Shown: positions 12,856 through 62,749 of the stretch, piece by piece
Position numbering within the stretch: position 1 is the stretch's first letter
How the letters are laid out: each line of letters begins with the position of its first letter
Assembly (NCBI GenBank): GCA_041596355.1
Contig: JBFHIS010000005.1
Coordinates: forward strand, 29,430 to 93,429
Direction: 5' to 3'
DNA length: 64,000 bases
Source: Sulfurimonadaceae bacterium
Lineage (GTDB): Bacteria > Campylobacterota > Campylobacteria > Campylobacterales > Sulfurimonadaceae
Program-made: the position numbers and the translations under genes
The notes under the pieces: model-generated
Database searches by the model: none
What the model was told of the DNA's origin: nothing
What the model saw: the letters and a program-made list of their open reading frames with translations, nothing else

Positions 12856-12904
12856 ACTTTTTTGTTGATTATTTTAGTTTTCTAGAATTCACTGTTTTTT
12901 AACT

Positions 12905-13330
12905 TTTGAATCTGTTGGACATTTTAATATCCTTGACTACACTCTTTCCTTTTTCACGACCCGGCATTTAGTGCCTCCCTGCATTGCGCTGTTGGCGCTG
13001 ATACTCCGCAAAAAACGAAACCACACAGCACTAAAGTGCCGTACAGGACGGAACTAAATTCCGTATCGTGAAAAGCGCTCGTGACGGCTTTACCCGAGGG
13101 TATTTCCTTTGGTCACAAGTCGACAGCTGTCGACTCCCATCCTTCCAGTCATTCCTTCGCTAAAAACGACTAACTCACCTTCGGCTCAAACAGAGCCGTT
13201 TTATTAACGCTCTTTCACTCCTTACAGTCTGCCTTGCAGATGCCACGAATCATTCAATCGGTAACGCATCTATTGGATTTAAAAGCTTCGCTTTTATTCC
13301 TGTTTGAATTGCTTGGTGGCAGTTGCTCTT
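12905..13330 (+). repeat. intergenic repeat element, copy A (promoter-like head, hairpin arm unit, conserved body blocks)
   Basis: Shares TTGGACATTTnAATATCCTTGACTACACTCTT with copy B. Shares CGGCATTTAGTGCCTCCCTGCATTGCGCTGTTGGCGCTGATAC with copies C and D. Shares the GCGCTCGTGACGGCT, TCGCTAAAAAC, GATGCCACGA, GGTAACGCAT and AAAGCTTCGCTTTTATT..TTTGAATTG blocks with B and D. Sits between convergent genes. Confidence 0.6.
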
Positions 13331-13587
13331 GATGTCGAAAAAGCTTTATGGATTGGAGTTCAGACAGATATTGGCGTCTAACCGCCAATTAGCCCGGAAG
13401 CCGAAATATTCAACTCGCTCCCATGGTCTCCGTGGGAGTGTATATTTCAGTATCGAGTGATTCGCCCATATGTATTCCCACTTACAACGTGGGAACAAGG
13501 AGCTTAAACATAAAAAAAATCAGCCTTCATTAAGCAATATAGCCACGAAGAAAAGAGCCACATAATCTATCAAAATATTGACAAAGG

Positions 13588-13944
13588 CTATTTCCCGAAA
13601 AGCCGGGCAAAGAACCCTTTCCCCTGCGCCTTCTGTACCATCCGGATATAACGGTCAACCGAGGCTGCACCGACTTCATAGTCTTTTACCATCTTGTTCT
13701 TGGCGCTTATGCTGACACAAAACGGCACACTCTGTATCTGGTACTTCTGTGCCAGTTTCGGGTTGCGTGTCACATCGACTTTGGCGATGACAGCCTCGTC
13801 TTTGAAGTAGTTGTCGAGATGGGGCAGGTTGGCAAGGACCTCTTGACAGGGCCCGCACATCGGCGAGTAAAAATCGATAAAGATCGCTTTGTCGCTTTTC
13901 TCTACGAGTTCGACATAACTTTCATCACTCAGTTCTATAACCAT
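13588..13944 (-). CDS. thioredoxin
   Basis: 118 aa, FYSPMCGPCQ active site. Confidence 0.85.
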   Translation of the reverse strand: MVIELSDESYVELVEKSDKAIFIDFYSPMCGPCQEVLANLPHLDNYFKDEAVIAKVDVTRNPKLAQKYQIQSVPFCVSISAKNKMVKDYEVGAASVDRYIRMVQKAQGKGFFARLFGK

Positions 13945-16645: not shown

Positions 16646-17347
16646 ATGAAGCTTCATATTATGCGCAATGGAGAGAAGGTCAGTTACAAGGTGACATCAG
16701 AAGAGGCAACCTTGCTGCAACTGTTGAGTGAGATCAAGACGACACAGGATGCATCGCTGAGTTTTGCCTCCGGATGCCGTTCCAGTGTCTGCGGCTCCTG
16801 TGCCATGCGTGTTAACGGCAAAGAGGTATTGGCTTGTACTTATAAACCGCAAGATGGAGACCTTGTCGAACCTTTGAAAAATGTTCCTCTTATCCGTGAT
16901 CTTGTGGTCGACATGGAGAAAGCGCTGGACTTCAATAGAGTTGCCAAGGCTTGGGCCGGAGAAAGTGCCGCGACCATTGCTCTTTCGCCTGAGGATGCCG
17001 AGATCAATGAAGTGCAGAGTGACTGTATTTTGTGCGGTGCCTGTTACAGTGCCTGTCCGGTCTACGCGGTGAACCCTGACTTTATCGGTCCGTTTGCACT
17101 GACACGCAGTTGGCGTTATGTGAGTGACAAACGTGAAGAGGATATCGCCGGCAAGATCGCAGCGGTTCAGACAAACGGTGTCTGGGACTGTACTTTGTGT
17201 GGGGAGTGTGTGCCGGTCTGTCCGCAGGGGATCGCGCCGAAATCGGATATTGATATGCTGCGCAGTAAAAGTAATGTCATGGGGTATATGGACCCTAATT
17301 TTGCCAACTTTGGCGGTGGACTTGATTTTGGGGCACCTGTTTTTTAA
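16646..17347 (+). CDS. sdhB: succinate dehydrogenase/fumarate reductase iron-sulfur subunit
   Basis: 2Fe-2S motif CRSSVCGSC; CILCGACYSACP and CTLCGECVPVCP clusters; strong RBS AGGAGG before the ATG at 16646 (the track start at 16622 is rejected). Confidence 0.9.
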   Translation: MKLHIMRNGEKVSYKVTSEEATLLQLLSEIKTTQDASLSFASGCRSSVCGSCAMRVNGKEVLACTYKPQDGDLVEPLKNVPLIRDLVVDMEKALDFNRVAKAWAGESAATIALSPEDAEINEVQSDCILCGACYSACPVYAVNPDFIGPFALTRSWRYVSDKREEDIAGKIAAVQTNGVWDCTLCGECVPVCPQGIAPKSDIDMLRSKSNVMGYMDPNFANFGGGLDFGAPVF

Positions 17348-17387
17348 CATTTGATTGTATTCGTTAAGGATTGGTTTTTCTTTCTTT

Positions 17388-17700
17388 TTTGAACCTGTTG
17401 GACATTTAAATATCCTTGACTACACTCTTACTTTTTTACGCCGCAAAAAAAGTAAGCAAAAAACCTCTCGTGACGGCTGCGCGGTCGGTAGCTACCGACT
17501 GCTTTCACTCCAGTCGTTCATGTCCTAAAAATCCCTAACTCACCTACGGCTCAGACAGAGTGATTTTATTAACGGTCATTCTCTTCTTACGTTCAACGCT
17601 GTAGATGCCACGAAAGAGAGCAAGCGGTAACGCATCTATTTTAAATTTAAAGCTACGCTTTAATCCCTGTTTGAATTGTTTGGCTATAGCTAGTTAATTG
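17388..17700 (+). repeat. intergenic repeat element, copy B (same promoter-like head as A; lacks the 50-bp arm unit)
   Basis: GAACCTGTTGGACATTTAAATATCCTTGACTACACTCTT, then the CTCGTGACGGCT, GGTCGGTAGCTACCGACT hairpin, CTAACTCACCTACGGCTCAGACAGAG..TTTTATTAACG, GATGCCACGA, GGTAACGCATCTATT and AAAGCTACGCTTTAAT..TTTGAATTG blocks. Confidence 0.6.
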
Positions 17701-17945
17701 TGTCGCAGCAGGATGTTGAATCTCTTCTATAATAAAGTACAAAAGCACAATAAGCGATACACGTTACGACCGGAGATGATGTTTGCAGTAATGCGAAAAT
17801 GTACGAAGGTCCAAAGTCACATCTCTAAAAATATAAATTCAAATCGCAACTATAGAATAAGTAAAACAAAAACCCTCAGTTTGCTTTCGTTATACTTGGT
17901 TAGTTAATAAAACTATGGGTCGGGTGACCCCTAAAAAGAGGTAAC

Positions 17946-19461: not shown

Positions 19462-20895
19462 TTAAGGCTGTATGACAGTGTTGGCAATTAACGTAACTGC
19501 CGTTTGTGCCAAGAGTCTGCCGTTGACTGTCGCACCGGTGTTTAACGTAATCGCTTTTTTTGCCAATACTACACCTTTGAAATCCGCTGTTGTTCCAAGA
19601 GAGACACCCGTACCTCCTGCAACTTGCCAGAAGATATTTTTAGCCAATGCGCCGCCGGCGAGAGTTACTATGGCACCATCGTCCACCGTAAGATCTGCGG
19701 CTATCTGGAAGATCCAGACATCGGTTGCGCTACCCGTGATAGTGACACCTGCATTTGTTATTAAAACACCTGCCGGTGCATCCCATTTGTAAAGTCCAGG
19801 AGTAAGAACCTTACCGCTTACATTACCTGCATACAGTTCAACATAATCAGGCAATGTGCGTCCGGCTGCATCATTATATGCAGTTTCCATGTCGAGTACT
19901 GCCGTTGTCATTTTAGCCGGATCTGTATCGGCTGCATAAATTTTGCCTGTTACTAAATCTGATGTTGCATATGTGCCGACAAGAGTCTGACTAAATCCTT
20001 CCAGAACACTTATAGCAGACGGGCTAAGGCCTATATCTCCTGTAATCGCCGTAGTGCCTGTGGTTGTTATTGTCGTTTTAGCAAGGATTACAAAACTTCC
20101 CGCTGTGCCGAGATTGACTGGCGCTAGAACTGGCGCTTCGGTCGTTCCTGTTGTAAAACTCCAAACCTTAACAACTGCTAAAGCATTTCCGGCTAAGTCT
20201 GTAACGCCAGTAGTGATTGTCGCATTGTATTCAGTGTTTATATTAAGGTTTGCAGTAGGATTGAAGATCATCGTGTTGCTTTCATAGCTTACTGTGCCAG
20301 CAACAGGTGTACCACCCATTGTAGTAGTTAATGTAAAAGTAGCTGAGGTGACAGTAGTAGGATCGAGTGTTTCACTGAAGAGGGCACTGACACTTCTGTT
20401 AATCGACACGTTTATATCACTGTTGTCAGGGTCTGTTGACGTCACTGTAGGTGCAGTAAGGTCTGTTGCTGTCCCTGTTGTAAAACTCCAGAAATATTCT
20501 ACTGCCATAGCATTACCGGCTACGTCCTTCACTCCAGTAGTGATTGTCGCATTATATTCAGTGCCGGCACTAAGATTTGCATCAGGATTGAAAAGCATTG
20601 CATTGTTAGCATAGCTCACTGTACCATCAACAGGTGTACTACCGGCTGTAGTAGCTAATGTAAAAGTAGTTGGGTTTACCGTGGAATCATCAAGTGCTTC
20701 ATTAAAGAAGGCAGCGATGCTTGTATTAAGGGTTGCGTTATTGTCACCTTGAACAGGAGCTGTAGATACAACGGTAGGAGCAGTAGAGTCTATAGTGTTA
20801 TTACTGTTATTATCGCTGCATCCTGTTGCAAAAATTGTCAGCATAAAGAGCATGGAGAGTAGCGCTGTATTTGAGTATTGTTTAAATATTTTCAT
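19462..20895 (-). CDS. surface lipoprotein with tandem Ig-like (SbsA/Big-type) repeats and a C-terminal ice-binding-like (DUF3494-type) domain
   Basis: Start moved to the ATG with an AAGGA RBS (MKIFKQY...). Lipobox FATGC. About 2.5 copies of a roughly 102-aa repeat (TAPTVxSTxP...GTVSYxxNxMxFNPxANL...EYNATITTGVxDxAGNAxAV). C-terminal LGTAGSFVILAKTTITTTGTTAITGDIGLSP block typical of DUF3494. Confidence 0.75.
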   Translation of the reverse strand: MKIFKQYSNTALLSMLFMLTIFATGCSDNNSNNTIDSTAPTVVSTAPVQGDNNATLNTSIAAFFNEALDDSTVNPTTFTLATTAGSTPVDGTVSYANNAMLFNPDANLSAGTEYNATITTGVKDVAGNAMAVEYFWSFTTGTATDLTAPTVTSTDPDNSDINVSINRSVSALFSETLDPTTVTSATFTLTTTMGGTPVAGTVSYESNTMIFNPTANLNINTEYNATITTGVTDLAGNALAVVKVWSFTTGTTEAPVLAPVNLGTAGSFVILAKTTITTTGTTAITGDIGLSPSAISVLEGFSQTLVGTYATSDLVTGKIYAADTDPAKMTTAVLDMETAYNDAAGRTLPDYVELYAGNVSGKVLTPGLYKWDAPAGVLITNAGVTITGSATDVWIFQIAADLTVDDGAIVTLAGGALAKNIFWQVAGGTGVSLGTTADFKGVVLAKKAITLNTGATVNGRLLAQTAVTLIANTVIQP

Positions 20896-21320
20896 TCGAT
20901 TTGTCCTTATAGACACGTTTTTAAAACGTAAATAATATGAATGTAAGATCCGTTACAATGGATAGGTACAAATTCTGAAAGTGTGTCAAACTTACAACTA
21001 GTGATGTATAAAAGAGTGACAATGTTATAAACCTAGCTTCTCTTAGAGTATTTGAAATCACTCTAGATAACTTCAGTGTAGTTGAAATATTATAATTAAT
21101 GGACTCTAATCAATATTAGTTTAAATTATAAGTAATTGTGAAGTAATAGATAGATATGACAGTGTAAATGACCAATAGAAACGCATTTGTGCGTTGAGTA
21201 TGATCACTTTTAAACTTATCTGTATTTAACTGGCTGTTTTGAGGCTGCCTAAACAAGAATCACTACATCAAAAAGATCAATAAAACCTTTATAAACAAGG
21301 GCAGCAATTGTAAATCGACA

Positions 21321-32639: not shown

Positions 32640-32711
32640 ATGGGGTAGAGGGATTCGAACCCCCGAATACTGGTACCAAAAACCAGTGCCTTACCGCTTG
32701 GCGATACCCCA
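32640..32711 (-). tRNA. tRNA-Gln (anticodon UUG); CCA apparently not encoded
   Basis: Reverse complement TGGGGTATCGCCAAGCGGTAAGGCACTGGTTTTTGGTACCAG...TTCGAATCCCTCTACCCCA, close to E. coli tRNA-Gln; loop UUUUGGU. Confidence 0.8.
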
Positions 32712-32737
32712 ATATTTATGAAAGTTGTTTTTTATGT

Positions 32738-32814
<77 letters not shown>

Positions 32815-32941
32815 ACATTTAAAATTTTTGCTTTATGCCGTACTCTGCGTTAGTTCTTCCTTCGGATACTGGCGTATACCTCAGTCTCAACTGCCTTGAT
32901 TACAACAAAAATCAATAAATTTTACAACCGTTGATTGTAAA

Positions 32942-33026
32942 TGGTGCGGACGAGAGGACTTGAACCTCCACACCGTGAGGCACCAGATCCTAAGTCTGGC
33001 GTGTCTACCAATTCCACCACGTCCGC
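32942..33026 (-). tRNA. tRNA-Leu (anticodon UAG), copy 1
   Basis: 85 nt with a long variable arm; loop CUUAGGA; CCA encoded. Confidence 0.9.
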
Positions 33027-33070
33027 GTTTTTTGTAATAATAAGTAAAATAAAGTTAACAATCAAATAGA

Positions 33071-33155
33071 TGGTGCGGACGAGAGGACTTGAACCTCCAC
33101 ACCGTAAGGCACCAGATCCTAAGTCTGGCGTGTCTACCAATTCCACCACGTCCGC
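33071..33155 (-). tRNA. tRNA-Leu (anticodon UAG), copy 2 (one nucleotide different from copy 1)
   Basis: Identical to copy 1 except for a G/A change in the variable arm; 44-bp AT-rich spacer. Confidence 0.9.
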
Positions 33156-33344
33156 ATGTGTTTGTTGTTAACAGTATTAATAAAGAACATCTATCATTTT
33201 AATTTCTCTGTTTTCAAAAACAGAAGCTTTAGTGCCATAGCGGCAAGCAGTTGTCTCTATGTTCTTTGCAAAACTTTGCAAAAGCTTTAGTGACTTAGCG
33301 TCTAGCGTAGGAAATGGGCTTTGCTCATTTTCGTTCTAAACAAA

Positions 33345-33421
<77 letters not shown>

Positions 33422-33432
33422 GTATTTTTTAA

Positions 33433-33509
33433 TGGTACGCCCGACAGGGTTCGAACCTGTAACCGGCGGTGCCGAAAACCGCTACTCTATCCAGTTGAGC
33501 CACGGGCGC
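33433..33509 (-). tRNA. tRNA-Arg (anticodon read as UCG; loop UUUCGGC)
   Basis: GCGCCCGTGGCTCAACTGGATAGAGTAGCGGTTTTCGGCACCGC...GGTTCGAACCC...CCA. The anticodon assignment depends on hand-folding. Confidence 0.65.
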
Positions 33510-33553
33510 ACACTGTAAAAAATGTCTTATTTCAAATTTTAATTTCTATCAAA

Positions 33554-33631
33554 TGGGGTGAGATACGGGATTCGAACCCGCGACCCCCGGCACCACAAAC
33601 CAGTGCTCTAACCAACTGAGCTAATCTCACC
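33554..33631 (-). tRNA. tRNA-His (anticodon GUG) with genomically encoded G-1
   Basis: An extra 5' G pairs with C73; loop UUGUGGU; CCA encoded. Confidence 0.88.
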
Positions 33632-33659
33632 ATATGTTTGAAAAAAATAAGAAATAAAG

Positions 33660-33737
33660 TGGTCGGGGCGAAAGGACTCGAACCTTCGACCCCCTGGTCC
33701 CAAACCAGGTACTCTAACCATACTGAGCTACGCCCCG
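33660..33737 (-). tRNA. tRNA-Pro (anticodon UGG)
   Basis: CGGGGCGTAGCTCAGTATGGTTAGAGTACCTGGTTTGGGACCAGG...; C1:G72 typical of tRNA-Pro; CCA encoded. Confidence 0.88.
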
Positions 33738-37605: not shown

Positions 37606-38172
37606 TTATTGCTCTTTAAGAATTTTGACAATGGCCTCCGGAAGAAGCTTGTGCTCGAGTCTGCGTATCTTTCGGGTAAAGCTTTCGAGTGTCTCATCGG
37701 CTGTTTTAGAAAAGGCATCTTGGACGATAACCTCGCCTCCGTCGAGTTCGGAACTGACCCAGTGGACACTGACACCGCCGGAAAGCTCACTGCTTTCAAA
37801 ACTCTTTTCTATGGCGTTACCGCCTTTGAAAAGAGGCAGAAGCGAAGGGTGGACATTGATCGCTTTGATGTTGTCTGTGATGACAGGTGTCAAGATGCGC
37901 ATAAAGCCGGCCATAACGACCAGGTCCGGATCATAGTGGCGAATGGTATGCAGGAGCTGGTGGTCAAAACTTTCTCTGTCGCTAAAGTCGGTGTGGTCGA
38001 TGACCTCTACAGGGACATGATGTTCTTTCGCTTTTGCGATCCCGCCGGCATTGGGACGGTTAGTGATCGCGGCAAGGACATCGACCTCTTTGTGATGGAG
38101 TGTTTCGATGATGTTGAGAAGGTTGGACCCTTCTCCGCTAAAAAGGATGACGATTGTTTTACGACTCGGCAT
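37606..38172 (-). CDS. purN: phosphoribosylglycinamide formyltransferase (folate-dependent)
   Basis: IVILFSGEGSNL, NVHPSLLP and other PurN motifs; 188 aa. Its start codon lies inside the first arm unit of repeat locus C. Confidence 0.9.
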   Translation of the reverse strand: MPSRKTIVILFSGEGSNLLNIIETLHHKEVDVLAAITNRPNAGGIAKAKEHHVPVEVIDHTDFSDRESFDHQLLHTIRHYDPDLVVMAGFMRILTPVITDNIKAINVHPSLLPLFKGGNAIEKSFESSELSGGVSVHWVSSELDGGEVIVQDAFSKTADETLESFTRKIRRLEHKLLPEAIVKILKEQ

Positions 38173-38310
38173 TTAGTGCCTCCCATGCATTGAACTGTTG
38201 GTTCCGATACGACTCGGCATTTCACGATCCGTCATTTAGTGACTCCCTGTATTGTGCTGTTGGCACTTAACTGCCTTCCGTGCATTGCGCTGATACGATG
38301 AATCATTTAG
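38160..38310 (+). repeat. repeat locus C: about three degenerate tandem copies of the roughly 45-bp arm unit CGGCATTTAGTGCCTCCCTGCATTGCGCTGTTGGCGCTGATAC
   Basis: acgactCGGCATTTAGTGCCTCCCaTGCATTGaaCTGTTGG.., ..gactCGGCATTTcacgatCC.., GTCATTTAGTGaCTCCCTGtATTGtGCTGTTGGCacT.., ..TGCATTGCGCTGATACgatg. Contiguous units, no unique spacers. Confidence 0.55.
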
Positions 38311-39733: not shown

Positions 39734-39882
39734 GCGTGTTCCTGCTTATTAATTGCATTATTATAGCCAATGTGAGTGAATAGGGGTGAGTTGAGTTATA
39801 ATACGGTTTATCATAAGAACCAAAGGTTCAATGCATGGGTGGTACGATAGTGCCAACAGCACAATAGAGGAAATAGTTTATA

Positions 39883-40857
39883 ATGAGTCGTAAAAACGAT
39901 TACAGAGCAATTGTCAAAGAGACATTGGAAATCGAAGCTAACACGCTTTTGCAAGCTGCTGAAAAGATCTCTGAAGATCTCGATAAGATCGTAGAGACGA
40001 TTCTGCAATGCAAGGGTAAGTTGATCGTTACCGGTGTCGGTAAGTCCGGGCTGATCGGTGCGAAAATGGCGGCGACTTTTGCCTCGACCGGGACACCCAG
40101 TTTTTTCCTGCACCCAACCGAAGCGATGCATGGTGACTTGGGAATGATCTCAAAAGAGGATGTTGTACTGGCCATCAGTTACAGCGGAGAGAGTGAAGAG
40201 CTCAGCTCGATTTTGCCGCATGTAAAACGGTTTGATATCCCGTTGATCGGTATGACAAAAAACAGCACCTCTACATTGGGTGATTTCAGTGACCTGCTGG
40301 TGACAATCGATGTGAAGAAAGAGGCGTGTCCGCTCGACATCGCACCGACCTCTTCAACAACGCTGACATTGGCTCTCGGAGATGCTTTGGCGGTCTGTCT
40401 GATGAAGGCCCGTGACTTTAAAAAAGAGGATTTCGCCTCGTTCCATCCGGGTGGTTCGTTAGGTCGTCAGCTTTTTGTAAAAGTCAAAGATGTCATGCGG
40501 AAAGAGTCCTTGCCGGTCATCAACATGAAGACGCCGCTTAAAGAAGCGATCGTGAGCATCAGTGAAGGACGTATCGGTACGGTCCTTCTGGTTGATGACA
40601 ATAACAAGTTTACAGGTCTCATCAGTGATGGTGACATTCGCCGTGCGTTGCTGAACAAAGCATTCTCTCTCGAAGAGCCGGCTTCGACGTATGCGACCTT
40701 AAATCCAAAGACAATCGACGACGCAAGCATGCTTGCAAGCGACGCGTTGGTATTGATTGAAAAATATAAGATCCAGCTCCTGGTAGTGGTTGACAAAGAG
40801 AAAAACCTTCTCGGTGCTCTACATCTCCATGATCTGGTTGAAAAGGGAATCGCATGA
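39883..40857 (+). CDS. KpsF/GutQ family sugar-phosphate (arabinose-5-phosphate) isomerase with SIS and tandem CBS domains
   Basis: GKLIVTGVGKSGLIGAKMAATFASTG SIS motif; CBS pair at the C-terminus; 324 aa. Confidence 0.88.
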   Translation: MSRKNDYRAIVKETLEIEANTLLQAAEKISEDLDKIVETILQCKGKLIVTGVGKSGLIGAKMAATFASTGTPSFFLHPTEAMHGDLGMISKEDVVLAISYSGESEELSSILPHVKRFDIPLIGMTKNSTSTLGDFSDLLVTIDVKKEACPLDIAPTSSTTLTLALGDALAVCLMKARDFKKEDFASFHPGGSLGRQLFVKVKDVMRKESLPVINMKTPLKEAIVSISEGRIGTVLLVDDNNKFTGLISDGDIRRALLNKAFSLEEPASTYATLNPKTIDDASMLASDALVLIEKYKIQLLVVVDKEKNLLGALHLHDLVEKGIA

Positions 40858-57125: not shown

Positions 57126-57734
57126 ATGAAACAGGCATATCAATTTACGCTTATACTCTTAATGGCTGCTGTGTTTGCAGGTTGTGGTGATAACAGTACC
57201 CAAAACCCTTACATGATGGGTGAAAAACCAGCGGACAAGAAGCAGGTCTATACGGTCTCTAATCAAAGCAAAGACAGCGCCGTTGTCATAGCGTCGATCG
57301 AAGGAGAAACGCAAAAAGAGATTGCCAAGATCAACAAAGAGCGTGATGTCGAGCTTCAAAAGCTGGCGCAGAACACGAAGCTTGTTGAGATCAACGCACA
57401 AAATGAGATAGCCGTTAAAGAGCACAACCTCTCCACTTTTGTACAAGAGAGTGATTACGCGTTTAAAAAGAGTACCCTGATAGTAGTCTCCTTTGCACTG
57501 ATCGCATTTCTCGCCTTGGCGCTTTATATGTTTAGAAAACGCCGTGAAGATAAGTTGAAAATGCATGAGAACGAACTGCAAAAAGAGATGTATATTCGTG
57601 AAAAAGAGCTGCAGGTGAAGATGGCTGAGAAGATCCTCGATACCATTGCAAGTGGAAAGCTTTCCAAAGAACGCGAGCAGCATCTGTTGGAGACTTTTGA
57701 CAAGGCGGCACCGGGGTTACCTAACAAGAAGTAG
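57126..57734 (+). CDS. hypothetical lipoprotein with coiled-coil and one internal TM segment
   Basis: Lipobox AVFAGC; start ambiguous (the track gives 57108). Confidence 0.5.
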   Translation: MKQAYQFTLILLMAAVFAGCGDNSTQNPYMMGEKPADKKQVYTVSNQSKDSAVVIASIEGETQKEIAKINKERDVELQKLAQNTKLVEINAQNEIAVKEHNLSTFVQESDYAFKKSTLIVVSFALIAFLALALYMFRKRREDKLKMHENELQKEMYIREKELQVKMAEKILDTIASGKLSKEREQHLLETFDKAAPGLPNKK

Positions 57735-57849
57735 TCTGCGACAGGCTTTTTGGTTTTGCACTTGAAATAATTGTATACCCTTTAATTCTTTATTGGCTTC
57801 TCTTTATTTTTTAGTACAGGCGTATCGTTGAAAAGTACAACTTTCGTCT

Positions 57850-58310
57850 CATACACTCTTTCTTTTTTCACGACTCGGCATTTAGTGCCTCCCTGCATTG
57901 CGCTGTTGGCGCTGATACGCCGCAAAAAAATAAAACAAAAAAAGCGCTCGTGACGGCTTCGCAGTCGGTGGCTACCGACTGCTTTCCTTACAGTCGTTCT
58001 TTCGCTAAAAACTGCCGCACCGATGCTTCGCATAACGGTTTATCCAAAAAAACGTGCCTTACAGCACCTTTCTTTTGGCATATCGTCGGCTAAAAAACGC
58101 AAAGAAATTCGCCTTTTTCTTAAGGCCTTTGGCACTCCATACGCTCAACGCTGTAGATGCCACGACACAGGGCTAAAGCCCCGTACAGGGAGGCACTAAA
58201 TGCCGAGTCGTGAAAGAGCTAAGCGGTGACGCATTGATTTGAATGTAAAAGCTTTCGCTTTTGATTTAGTTTGAACTTTGTCGATGTAGAACTGCGTGTT
58301 GGTACAGCTA
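57850..58310 (+). repeat. intergenic repeat element, copy D (perfect 30-bp inverted repeat at 57866-57895 and 58186-58215 flanking 290 bp of conserved body blocks)
   Basis: TTTCACGACTCGGCATTTAGTGCCTCCCTG ... CAGGGAGGCACTAAATGCCGAGTCGTGAAA. The interior carries the GCGCTCGTGACGGCT, AGTCGGTGGCTACCGACT, TCGCTAAAAAC and GATGCCACGA blocks; the tail carries GGTGACGCAT, AAAGCTTTCGCTTTTGATT and TTTGAACTT. Confidence 0.6.
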
Positions 58311-58399
58311 GAACCTACGGAGGGATTTCGTAACTCCGAGTATTCTGATTGATCAAATTGTGACTGTGACCGCCATCGTGCTCTCTTTTTTTCGTTAGG

Positions 58400-58427
58400 T
58401 TTTTTCTCTGCACGAGCAGAGAAAAAA
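58400..58427. terminator. perfect 12-bp-stem hairpin (TTTTTTCTCTGC-acga-GCAGAGAAAAAA), likely a bidirectional terminator downstream of aroC
   Basis: Stem and loop read directly from the sequence; U-runs on both strands. Confidence 0.6.
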
Positions 58428-58594
58428 AGTGACATACTAGTGATTTGAAGTAATTAAAAAAGTTTGAACGTTCAAAAAAGTCACAAGTAATAGACCAAAG
58501 TCATAAAGTAAAAATAGTAAAAAGGACAAAGGAGTTAATTGTCTAGTAGATGACGTCTAATTAAGGACTCGAAGAAATGGAAGAAAGCGTAGAT

Positions 58595-59671
58595 TTACGC
58601 TTTGTAGTACCCTTTGATGCCATCCATCGTCCGCCCCATGTTAAGTAGTACCATGTCTGCTACCACAAGGGCTGCCATCGCTTCGGCAACGACAGAACCG
58701 CGAATAGCGACACAAGGATCATGGCGCCCTTTGAGGGCAAAGTCGACCTCTTCGTCATGGGTCGTTGTTGTATGCTGCTCAATGAAGATAGAAGGTGTCG
58801 GCTTGAAGTAGACGTTGACGCGAACCTCTTCGCCGTTACTGATACCGCCCAGAATACCGCCGGAATGGTTCGACTCAAAACCGCTGTTTCGAATAGGGTC
58901 ATTGTTGGTTGAACCGAAGGCTTTGGCACTCTCTGCACCGTCGCCGATCTCGACGGCTTTAACGGCATTTATTCCCATCATCGCTTCAGCCAGGACACCG
59001 TCGAGCTTATAGTAAAGCGGCTCGCCCAGACCGATCGGCAGGTTGCGCATTCTGATCTGCGCAACGCCGCCGACAGAGTCGTGACGGTTCTTGGCTTCGA
59101 TGATGGCATCTTTTTGGGCCTGTTCGACATTTTTATCGAGAGCATAGATCTCGCTGCCGGCGACATAGTCGTAGTCCAGTGTCTCAGCCTGGATACCTGC
59201 GATCTCGATAATACCGCTTTCAATCGTAATACCCAGCTCGTTTAACATCATTTTTGCCACGGCACCGGCAGCAACACGGGCGGCTGTTTCGCGTGCCGAC
59301 GAACGTCCGCCGCCGCGATAATCGCGAATGCCGTATTTATGCCAGTAGGTAAAGTCGGCATGCCCCGGTCGGAAGGTGTCTTTGATGTTGCTGTAGTCCT
59401 TGGACTTCTGGTTGGTGTTGTAGATGACCATGGCGATCGGTGTTCCGGTACTCAGCCCTTCGAATACACCGCTCAGGATCTCGACGCTGTCGGCCTCTTT
59501 ACGGGCAGTTGCGTATTCGTTTTGCCCGGGTTTACGGCGGTCAAGCTGGGCCTGGATATAGGCTTCATCGATAGTCAGACCAGCCGGTACGCCGTCAATC
59601 AGACAGCCGATCGCCTTACCGTGTGATTCACCAAACGTAGAAAAACTGAAACGGATGCCGAAACGGTTCAT
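58595..59671 (-). CDS. aroC: chorismate synthase
   Basis: MNRFGIRFSFSTFGESHGKAIGCLIDG N-terminus and other AroC motifs; 358 aa. Confidence 0.93.
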   Translation of the reverse strand: MNRFGIRFSFSTFGESHGKAIGCLIDGVPAGLTIDEAYIQAQLDRRKPGQNEYATARKEADSVEILSGVFEGLSTGTPIAMVIYNTNQKSKDYSNIKDTFRPGHADFTYWHKYGIRDYRGGGRSSARETAARVAAGAVAKMMLNELGITIESGIIEIAGIQAETLDYDYVAGSEIYALDKNVEQAQKDAIIEAKNRHDSVGGVAQIRMRNLPIGLGEPLYYKLDGVLAEAMMGINAVKAVEIGDGAESAKAFGSTNNDPIRNSGFESNHSGGILGGISNGEEVRVNVYFKPTPSIFIEQHTTTTHDEEVDFALKGRHDPCVAIRGSVVAEAMAALVVADMVLLNMGRTMDGIKGYYKA

Positions 59672-62016: not shown

Positions 62017-62046
62017 TTGACTTTAACCGTCAAGACACTCTATAAT
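62017..62046 (+). promoter_or_regulatory. sigma70-like promoter (TTGACT-N18-TATAAT) whose -35 lies in the palindrome TTGACTTTAACCGTCAA
   Basis: Read directly from the sequence; 38 bp upstream of the recombinase-like gene start. Confidence 0.45.
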
Positions 62047-62083
62047 GATGATGAAAATAAAAAAACGGGAGGTTTATTCGTCA

Positions 62084-62749
62084 ATGGCAATTAGTTATAT
62101 CCGCCCAGATAAATATTTTGACGGCGCTTTCGAGCAGCTAAAAAGCATAAATGCTTATGCTCAAGCGAGTAATATTGAAATCTCTAATGAATATGTTGAC
62201 CATACCTCGCAGAACAATACTTTGGATGCACGCGAAGCAGTCGTAACTTTTTTTAGAAACAACCAAAATAGAGATCTGCTCATATCAGACATATGGGTAT
62301 TGAGCAGTAATATTACGGACCTTCTACAAATGGTCGCTTGTCTGTTGAAAAACAATATGCGTATTCATGTGATAAACGCCGGTGTTGTGATCGATCAGAA
62401 GAGTGAGATTATGCTGGTCTTAGGTATTATCGATCAGCTGCGACAGGTCTTGGAGAGTAGAGAGAAGAAGATGATCGGCCGTCCGAAAGGGAGCCGTTCC
62501 TCCTCGAAGTTCGATCCCTATTTGGATCAGATCATCGGGTACATACGTGACAATTTGAGTGTCAGTGCAATGGCCCGCGAAATGAATGTAAGCCGTAGTT
62601 CGTTGAAAGACTACATTGAGTCGCGGGAGCTGAAAGAGGTGGCAAAAGGTCTTGTCACTTTGGATGTCCCTGCTGATGCAGAAGAGAAGGTGATAGGTAC
62701 GATAGTCTGTCCCCATTCAGAAAAAAACATAGAGGAGTCAACAGTATGA
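62084..62749 (+). CDS. serine recombinase (resolvase/invertase) homolog lacking the catalytic serine; C-terminal HTH
   Basis: Start set at the ATG 10 nt after a GGGAGG RBS. N-terminus ISYIRPDKYFDG aligns with resolvase GYARVSTxxQ with Ser replaced by Pro. C-terminal RPKGS...LSVSAMAREMNVSRSSL is an HTH. Confidence 0.65.
   Translation: MAISYIRPDKYFDGAFEQLKSINAYAQASNIEISNEYVDHTSQNNTLDAREAVVTFFRNNQNRDLLISDIWVLSSNITDLLQMVACLLKNNMRIHVINAGVVIDQKSEIMLVLGIIDQLRQVLESREKKMIGRPKGSRSSSKFDPYLDQIIGYIRDNLSVSAMAREMNVSRSSLKDYIESRELKEVAKGLVTLDVPADAEEKVIGTIVCPHSEKNIEESTV

Follow-up and report, generated by a model that had tools for sequence, protein, structure and literature searches.

The inverted repeat downstream of aroC in a Sulfurimonadaceae genome as the probable product of two insertions of a short, start-codon-bearing module

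The inverted repeat and its two arms

Within the window, by which we mean the whole 64,000-nt stretch of a Sulfurimonadaceae genome analysed here, an intergenic repeat termed copy D lies between two convergent genes. Upstream on the plus strand is an ORF with a lipobox (MKQAYQFTLILLMAAVFAGC), and downstream on the minus strand is the gene for chorismate synthase (aroC; PF01264); each has a terminator-like hairpin beside its own stop codon. This setting had been described correctly in an earlier note on the DNA, and the observation at its centre is exact: TTTCACGACTCGGCATTTAGTGCCTCCCTG at 57866-57895 is the perfect reverse complement of 58186-58215, with 290 nt between the two. Pairing reaches 39 nt at 90% identity (57866-57904 with 58177-58215), which leaves 272 nt between the extended arms. 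When as many as three mismatches are tolerated, the 30-mer matches the window four times, the further two matches being at 12952 (1 mismatch) and 38157 (3 mismatches), against none in 100 dinucleotide-preserving shuffles, so the inverted repeat is real and chance is excluded. The interior does hold conserved blocks, which belong to a body shared by alignment among three copies in the window, A, B and D. Folded as one RNA strand, 57850-58230 has a predicted energy of -153.9 kcal/mol (z = -9.2), with the arms forming a closing stem of ~33 bp.

Each arm proved to be the conserved 3′ part of a two-hairpin module of 47-48 nt. The left-arm module, on the minus strand at 57869-57916 (ATCAGCGCCAACAGCGCAATGCAGGGAGGCACTAAATGCCGAGTCGTG, 48 nt), is followed by an A-run from 57866-57868 onward; it comprises hairpin 1 (GCGC-CAACA-GCGC), the SD motif GGGAGG, and hairpin 2 (GGCA-CTAAA-TGCC), which holds an ATG. 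The right-arm module, on the plus strand at 58165-58212 (ACACAGGGCTAAAGCCCCGTACAGGGAGGCACTAAATGCCGAGTCGTG, 48 nt), joins a 'CACAG' 5′ half to a 3′ half of the SD/ATG type and is followed by AAA at 58213-58215. The left arm is matched at 57869-57917 on the minus strand (59.7 bits) and the right arm at 58164-58212 on the plus strand (65.6 bits) by a covariance model of 94 distinct module copies, which yields six strong matches in the window altogether (58164, 13022, 57869, 38160, 12955 and 38223). Two of these lie in body A: a minus-strand module at 12955-13002 (55.1 bits), at the site equivalent to the left arm of D, and a plus-strand module of 'type II' at 13023-13070 (60.4 bits), which has no ATG and whose hairpin 2 is ACGGAA-CTAAA-TTCCGT. 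The others belong to a minus-strand cluster at purN (locus C), where the module at 38160-38208 gives the gene its SD and ATG (start at 38172, MPSRK...) and a second, at 38223-38271, interrupts a third module within its hairpin-2 loop and so splits it into 38209-38222 and 38273-38303. Two decayed modules with weak scores (12-13.5 bits) precede the kpsF/SIS-CBS gene on the plus strand at 39812-39892 (start 39883, MSRKNDY), and an intact nested pair stands at the equivalent place before kpsF in a syntenic locus, L047. Separate hairpins of the ATTCCC...GGGAA type occur at ~13403-13486.

The exact 30-mer recurs in five other loci of other MAGs, and its A-variant (…CGTAAAA) in 41 loci. Over the conserved 3′ half both arms match the family consensus, hence their identity there, and in the 5′ halves they differ. 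The earlier note had thought a perfect repeat unlikely to persist without selection or recent mobility; the identity is therefore by itself no proof of recent mobility at locus D.

Alignment of the three intergenic repeats of the window (A 12857-13600, B 17348-17945, D 57735-58594) resolves the arms into separate blocks. The 48-nt block of the left arm is present in A and D but not in B, that of the right arm is found in D alone, and copy A has an extra 48-nt block at a third position. Body B is empty at both D sites, with its left junction at 17437/17438 and its right junction at 17612/17613, and since it is free of modules throughout it provides the empty-site reference. The earlier note had looked to relatives for empty sites downstream of aroC, and these exist. 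We took 80 aroC loci from metagenomes and read the aroC-downstream region in the closest ones: relatives with aroC 94-95% identical have either the body without the arms or no body at all. In L118 (94%), ~12 nt separate the convergent stop codons and the body is absent; in L114 (95%), the body is there with all module sites empty; in L115 (94%), the body has one module elsewhere and both D sites are empty; and the contigs of L116 and L117 stop within the repeat. L092, a body of the D kind from a different MAG (90% identity over 308 nt, different flanks), carries the left arm only, and a right-arm-type module occupies the right-arm site also in L033 and L085. As the arms are present or absent separately (B, L114, L115, L092, L033), each is an insertion of its own, the two differ in age, and they do not delimit the interior.

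We accordingly put at roughly four chances in five the reading in which a mobile module inserted twice, independently, and the inverted repeat arose by coincidence, the start-codon role described below included. The independence of the arms is shown by these sequence comparisons, and that they are independent insertions of a mobile module is much firmer than the mechanism of transposition proposed below.

The earlier note had instead seen the inverted repeat as the bounds of a single MITE-like unit. A genuine MITE would be a non-autonomous transposon of ~350 bp with 30-bp terminal repeats, moved whole by a DDE transposase, and the perfection of the repeat, its intergenic place and the related sequence elsewhere in the window all suit such an element. 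Yet the interior occurs armless (B, L114, L115) or one-armed (L092), and the arms occur without the interior at more than 100 places, gene starts among them. No direct repeat surrounds 57866-58215 (flanks ...CTCTTTCTTTT and GAGCTAAGCGG), comparison of filled with empty sites gives at most an ambiguous single A as target duplication for each module, and among 193 fetched loci there is no second two-armed arrangement. The features that define the class, namely terminal inverted repeats of one unit, a target-site duplication and, within the fetched loci, several copies of the whole unit, are all lacking, and we regard a MITE as most improbable. If the reading of two insertions is right, there is no 350-bp MITE in this window, and a false lead is removed.

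The same note had allowed for a long stem-loop, and to the extent that the fold is physically possible this stands. In its selected form, the idea is that a dsRNA stem of ~33 bp would act as an RNase III processing, stabilising or terminating signal between the convergent genes. Besides the very stable predicted fold, it is favoured by the position of the right arm, which abuts and hence extends a long-range helix of the body, and by the oppositely oriented module pairs that also occur in A, L045 and L104. The pair as such, however, is unique to copy D, orthologous copies are without it, both neighbouring genes have terminator-like hairpins of their own, and the orientation of each module follows that of the adjoining A-run. 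We consider a selected stem-loop decidedly unlikely, and the long hairpin is probably a by-product confined to copy D. The MITE or long-hairpin interpretation is thus not supported, in contrast to the idea that the arms can provide start codons, which the sequences do support and which is generalisable.

The module family and the body

The module has the consensus nATAAAGAnCTAAAGTnCAATGCAGGGAGGCACTAAATGCCGAGTCGTA. From 5′ to 3′ it consists of a lead (ATAAG, ATCAG or ACACAG), hairpin 1 (GNNC-TAAA or CAACA-GNNC), AATGCAGG, GAGG, hairpin 2 (GGCA-CTAAA-TGCC or a covarying equivalent), and GAGTCGT(A/G), followed by an A-run. The end, TCGT(A/G), lies immediately 5′ of the A-run, and there are neither terminal inverted repeats nor a detectable target duplication. 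Hairpin 2 varies among GGCA/TGCC, GGAA/TTCC, GTCA/TGAC and GCAA/TTGC. Covariation is seen in both hairpins: paired cells amount to 77.8%, compared with 63.3% in shuffles, and none of 500 shuffles is as high; 145 cells are changed on both sides, and slid controls give 23-41%. Taken singly, modules have little thermodynamic stability (-6 to -20 kcal/mol; z from +1.1 to -2.0). The strand test on the module gives 30 G-U against 23 A-C pairs, counts that do not tell the structured strand from the other, so that selection at the DNA level and at the RNA level are not separable.

One genome per species was scanned with a degenerate pattern of 28 nt, which found at least 112 loci, all but one of them in MAGs of Campylobacterota (Sulfurimonas, Sulfurovum, Sulfuricurvum, Sulfurimonadaceae, and "Helicobacteraceae" as named by the depositors); the exception is a contig binned as Patescibacteria, and the pattern has no match in viral contigs. 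The pattern fixes 19 bases, AAA among them, and most loci were ascertained by it, so there is bias in how invariant the 3′ half appears and in how large a share of modules lies at gene starts. For 24 modules ascertained without the AAA-containing pattern, the 3′ side is AAA in 14 and directly another module in 2. The covariance model gives 123 matches in 100 sources and 25 in a further 93. The aroC loci, which amount to 480 kb and are unbiased for the module, contain only 4 copies, compared with 6 in the 64-kb window, so the genome or region of the window is module-rich.

Several arrangements recur within the family. Type II modules, which have no ATG and a 6-bp hairpin 2 (GGRCGGAA…TTCCGYATC), make up 35 of 122 copies and are found in non-coding contexts only. 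At six loci (L003, L006, L024, L040, L047 and L051) and at 38209-38303 of the window, one module sits inside the hairpin-2 loop of another (CACT^AAATGCC); modules stand in tandem in L025, L065, L097 and locus C of the window. In the bodies of L085 and L104, the segment between two module sites is apparently missing, as if the modules had recombined.

The body is a repeat in its own right. There are 67 nhmmer matches to it in the loci and the window, 37 of them near full length. Aligned with A and B, the core of copy D occupies 57852-58290 on the plus strand, with conservation running to ~58470; body A lies at 12871-13316 and body B at 17337-17728, both also on the plus strand. From an alignment of 30 module-stripped copies, drawn from the window and other MAGs, a plus-strand structure is predicted that consists of a long-range helix, a palindromic hairpin, an AAAACG/CGTTTT helix and a 3′ hairpin. 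In D, the 5′ strand of the long-range helix, CTCGTGACGGC at 57947-57957, pairs with GATGCCACGA according to RNAalifold and pair counts; its 3′ strand, GATGCCACG, is at 58156-58164, and the right-arm module begins at the next base. Compensatory variants of this helix include CTCGAAAC/GTTTCGAA, CCTCTAAC/GTTAGAGG and CTCATGGC/GCCATGAA. The palindromic hairpin, GCAGTCGGTGGCTACCGACTGC at 57961-57982 (+), is terminator-like, and four of its seven pairs are changed on both sides across the 30 copies.

Over the whole body, 95.7% of cells are paired compared with 85.8% in shuffles, 101 are changed on both sides, and slid controls give 35-49%. Counts of 59 G-U against 12 A-C pairs favour the plus strand, although the structure was predicted on that strand, which somewhat favours it; copy B also folds better than its shuffles on the plus strand only (z = -2.65, compared with +0.61 on the minus strand). 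Its orientation relative to neighbouring genes is the same in 17 cases and opposite in 16, and with no such bias the body is not a 3′-UTR element. Body B is found at the orthologous place in L070, whose genome is ~80% identical, and the body is missing at the D-orthologous site of L118. Against Rfam, the whole window yields only tRNAs at gathering scores and 57700-58600 only noise at E <= 10, with no match to the body. The body may be transcribed from a TTGGAC-17-TACACT-like motif. A structured repeat that is supported by covariation and has no Rfam match merits a study of its own. Clustering of the ORFs recurrent among the loci yielded only an IS110-family transposase, which targets the body and has no evident link to the module.

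Copy D also retains sites that are empty there and filled elsewhere. Site 2, an A-run before GCGCTCGTGACGG (57937-57943, +), is filled in body A by the module at 13023-13070, which sits just before the 5′ strand of the long helix, and likewise in L011, L045, L063 and L110. Site 4 consists of the hairpin CTCTGCACGAGCAGAG, an A-run and then GTGACATAC (58406-58428, +); the homologous site is filled in L012, L014, L041, L054, L070 and L073.

Modules at the starts of genes

The most interesting part of the finding is that the arms can supply start codons. The earlier note had pointed out that ATGCCGAGTCGT of the right arm also forms the purN start, and had proposed that the arms provide start codons when inserted in front of genes. 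The identity is exact (minus strand, 38172; MPSRKTIVILFSGEGSN; Formyl_trans_N), an independent assembly's gene call likewise begins the purN of the window at MPSRK, and the proposal extends well beyond this gene: 42-48 of the sampled modules, that of purN included, start long housekeeping ORFs. About one-third of sampled copies, a share subject to the ascertainment bias noted above, lie just 5′ of an AAA codon among the first few codons of a housekeeping gene, and 42 modules with an ATG, half of the copies with an ATG in the loop, open ORFs of at least 70 aa. The genes include hemE, asd, serA, purN, coaD, rpiB, fabD, trpA, gmd, galE, lpxA, mnmA, a miaB-like gene, nfo and kpsF, and the module-derived N-termini are MPSRK (27), MPNRK (5) and MPTRK (3). 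In the common type of module, GGGAGG is followed after 6 nt by the ATG. We conclude that the module is a putative supplier of SD and start codon to genes, a role that the sequences support.

Module-free orthologues are available for at least seven genes (hemE, asd, serA, nfo, trpA, mnmA and lpxA) and define the insertion point, which is immediately 5′ of the AAA codon, in frame, at codons one to five. The empty hemE begins ATG AGT ^AAG ATT TTT GTA and the filled one ATG AGT, module, AAA ATA TTT GTA, giving MPSRKIFVDAC. The native start is left at the head of a short ORF of ~16 codons (e.g. MIRIKIQCREALNAES). Of 48 genic modules, 47 end this upstream ORF with the TAA or TGA of TCG-TRA; in variants with one extra nucleotide it runs to an ATGA overlap. 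For 32 of the 48, a native start in frame is located no more than 18 nt upstream, and 26 of those 32 have an SD-like motif. Bypass ("hop") elements share a size of ~50 nt, a hairpin and an SD-like motif with the module and were considered for that reason; the canonical in-frame SD-ATG rules against elements of the T4 gene 60 or mitochondrial byps type.

We propose that insertion before an AAA codon would restart the gene as M-P-S-R-K and turn the native start into that of an upstream ORF, with the gene then being translated by direct initiation, by termination-reinitiation, or by both. The upstream ORF may couple its translation to that of the module-started gene, as the position of its stop suggests. 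If translation can continue in this way, it would explain how insertions survive in housekeeping genes. Several of the gene-start insertions are common to different genera (hemE in five MAGs, purN in four), a pattern that suits long-retained old copies better than continuing mobility.

Such retention also bears on an alternative that we think unlikely, in which the module is not mobile but is the conserved cis-regulatory leader of a regulon (an RNA-binding-protein operator, a thermometer or a riboswitch-like element), spread by recombination or gene conversion, with the body copies as decoys or relics. A 3′ part of 28-30 nt that is strongly conserved between genera, the compensatory changes in hairpin 1 among orthologous hemE copies, the canonical SD-ATG geometry, and the keeping of the same insertions in several genera would all be expected of a leader. 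It accounts poorly for clean filled/empty pairs that differ by exactly 46-48 nt, for nesting of modules in their own loop and tandem arrays, for both orientations inside a non-coding repeat, for the type II copies without ATG, and for the lack of any match to an Rfam family. A regulatory role gained after insertion would be compatible with a mobile module. At its most ambitious, the mobile module might be a translation-initiation cassette (SD, AUG, MPSRK, a coupled upstream ORF, and two hairpins putatively recognised by protein) that has brought dozens of unrelated housekeeping genes of Sulfurimonas, Sulfurovum and their relatives under a common initiation region and so built a translational regulon by transposition, under a trans-acting factor and with the body, an undescribed class of structured RNA, as its safe landing pad. 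We offer this as a speculation and hold it to be rather unlikely as a whole.

If the reading of modules as gene starts is true, many core genes in several genera of environmentally dominant sulfur oxidisers have had their first codons and ribosome-binding sites rewritten by a 48-nt element. For annotation, the true N-termini would be MPSRK, and the native start codons would belong to upstream ORFs. For assembly, contigs of MAGs often break at such repeats. Because clean filled and empty orthologues exist, the system would be tractable for testing how termination-reinitiation buffers insertions.

Movement and comparison with known systems

In the history that we propose for copy D, one module would have inserted into the loop of the first hairpin of a body of ~300 nt. 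Since the plus strand has a T-run at that site, the module there is antisense. A second would have inserted just 3′ of the long-range helix of the body, at an A-run on the plus strand, and is therefore sense. With a near-invariant 3′ 30 nt in each and opposite orientations, two such insertions would produce a perfect 30-bp inverted repeat. The module may move as single-stranded hairpin DNA through a trans-acting enzyme of the HUH/Y1 type (IS200/IS605- or RAYT-like). This mechanism is suggested by anatomy, and we advance it tentatively, at odds clearly worse than even. Approximate tblastn queries with the IS200 and IS608 TnpA and the E. coli RAYT against 1.3 Mb of loci gave nothing better than E = 0.3, which is weak evidence as the loci cover the genomes only in part, and no autonomous element with module-like ends was seen in the fetched loci. 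Y1 transposases and GTAG REPs, which are RAYT-associated, have been reported in Sulfurovum sp. NBC37-1 (PMC3733652, PMC4690160).

In anatomy, and in anatomy only, the module resembles IS200/IS605 elements and their ORF-less derivatives (PATEs): it has a hairpin near each end, no terminal inverted repeats and no target duplication, and its insertion adjoins a short specific sequence, which for the module is an A-run (a T-run on the other strand). At 47-48 nt, however, it is several-fold smaller than the known minimal derivatives, and no TnpA was found by the queries described above. We found no R-box and no GTTRRRY-type core, and reject an integron attC-like site.

REPs and REPINs are, like the module, very short dispersed hairpin repeats without terminal inverted repeats or target duplications. 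Both often occur as opposed pairs that can be folded into larger hairpins, and a trans-acting mobiliser has been postulated for REPs as we postulate one for the module. A GTAG REP has an unpaired GTAG at one end of a single imperfect palindrome, and the associated RAYT gene is flanked by the repeats. The module differs in having neither a GTAG nor a CGTC tag, and two hairpins of 4-6 bp rather than one longer palindrome; we therefore reject a REP or REPIN of the GTAG type. REPs of the CGTC type have a CGTC tag, a stem of 8-9 bp that starts with A-T pairs, a loop of 4-5 nt and a CCA tail (PMC3733652); with its shorter stems, no such tag and no CCA tail, the module does not belong to these either. 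Unlike a REPIN, moreover, the module pair in D is demonstrably independent, and whereas REPs are extragenic, the module often lies where a coding sequence begins. An association with RAYTs was not found for it in the 1.3 Mb of loci covered by the approximate queries.

Small repeats tolerated in host transcripts or ORFs for the expression signals that they carry have parallels in the Correia elements of Neisseria and the RPEs of Rickettsia. Correia elements bring promoters and RNase III sites and have 26-bp terminal inverted repeats with a TA duplication; RPEs are in-frame insertions that are read through within proteins. The module differs from both in that it would restart translation at the 5′ end of the gene. 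No prior description of it was found by full-text searches of the literature.

The closest known analogue in behaviour is the mycobacterial MIRU. A 2025 review (PMC12548453, citing Supply et al. 1997) presents MIRUs as repeats that seem to be mobile, that enter genes at the start codon, and whose internal ORF is coupled to the gene. The module likewise inserts at the start codons of genes (the 42-48 genic modules, with filled/empty orthologue pairs for seven genes), the stop of its small upstream ORF overlaps or abuts the downstream start, and both can occur as tandem copies. The module differs in belonging to another phylum with another base composition, so that homology of sequence is not expected; in bringing its own strong SD and ATG and adding MPSR to the protein; in having an upstream ORF that overlaps the new ORF by 14 nt in the common form, with the -4 ATGA overlap only in the 1-nt-longer variants; and in having two covarying hairpins and inserting into itself and, in both orientations, into a structured non-coding repeat. 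If the present reading is true, the module would join the MIRUs as the second clear example of specialisation for start codons in a repeat.

Body copies and their IS110-family insertions

Three copies of the body, a structured intergenic repeat of ~300 nt that can reach ~600 nt, lie in the window, at 12871-13316 (copy A), 17337-17728 (copy B) and 57852-58470 (copy D). Its plus-strand helices are backed by covariation, and a search of Rfam gave no match to it; related MAGs hold many further copies, and orthologous sites are polymorphic for its presence or absence. The body is possibly an RNA or a mobile element not described before. A promoter-like motif, TTGGAC-17-TACACT, is found at the 5′ edge of body A (12914-12942) and at the equivalent place in B, and TTGAAA-18-TACACT at that of body D (57828-57857). 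Plus-strand transcription of the body would start from this putative promoter, which is recognized by consensus match only.

Bodies are themselves hit by IS110-family elements at A/T-run junctions, sites common to the modules, which are dispersed 47-48-nt two-hairpin elements. Among loci fetched from related MAGs and metagenomes, such elements occupy L057 (6693-8000), L080 (~331-1640) and L007 (4033-5049); their transposase begins MxKYIGIDVAK…, and their ends read CGTATAATA… and …TTTTTAAAGGTGGAAAC. The insertion junction is ...CGAGAGCT^TTTTTGG in L080 and ...GTACGTCACT^ in L057, and the matching sites in window copy D are empty. In two other loci, L085 (3627-3700) and L104 (4249-4400), the entire domain that the body's long-range helix encloses appears to be gone and a module occupies the junction, as though two modules at separate sites had recombined.

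Modules at gene starts and contig ends

At locus C (38150-38303), the gap from a YjeF-like gene to purN is filled by three modules, one nested and one in tandem; in relatives the two genes overlap at an ATGA stop/start. The nested pair 5′ of kpsF (39812-39892) is decayed and still supplies AGAGGA and an ATG (MSRKNDY). Unusual modules include one in Sulfuricurvum (L084, ~1334-1420) with a 31-nt insert in its hairpin-1 loop, and a divergent one (L049, 658-705) whose hairpin 2 is AAACCA/TGGTTT and which has no stop codon, with in-frame read-through giving an N-terminal extension.

Modules and bodies fragment assemblies of this Campylobacterota clade. Short-read MAG and Logan contigs often terminate within them (for example L010, L011, L014, L038, L051, L069, L071, L116 and L117), and that of L001 stops 291 nt beyond aroC.

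Other genes and hairpins of the window

A 234-aa ORF on the plus strand (62045-62749) passes the Pfam cut-off for the resolvase N-terminal domain (PF00239) at E = 1e-5 and is conserved in relatives, beside the same genes. Eight tRNA genes cluster on the minus strand (32640-33737), with a ninth at 2531-2603, and 327 nt are tandemly duplicated (20144-20770) within the gene (19462-20916) for a 484-aa Big_5 and ice-binding-like protein.

Near body A stand two further hairpins, CTCCCATGG-TCT-CCGTGGGAG (~13403-13425) and TTCCCAC-TTACAAC-GTGGGAA (~13466-13486), and locus L102 has a similar one. Both window hairpins are like the 'CGTC-type' REPs, ATTCCC…GGGAAT, reported for Sulfurovum sp. NBC37-1 (PMC3733652).
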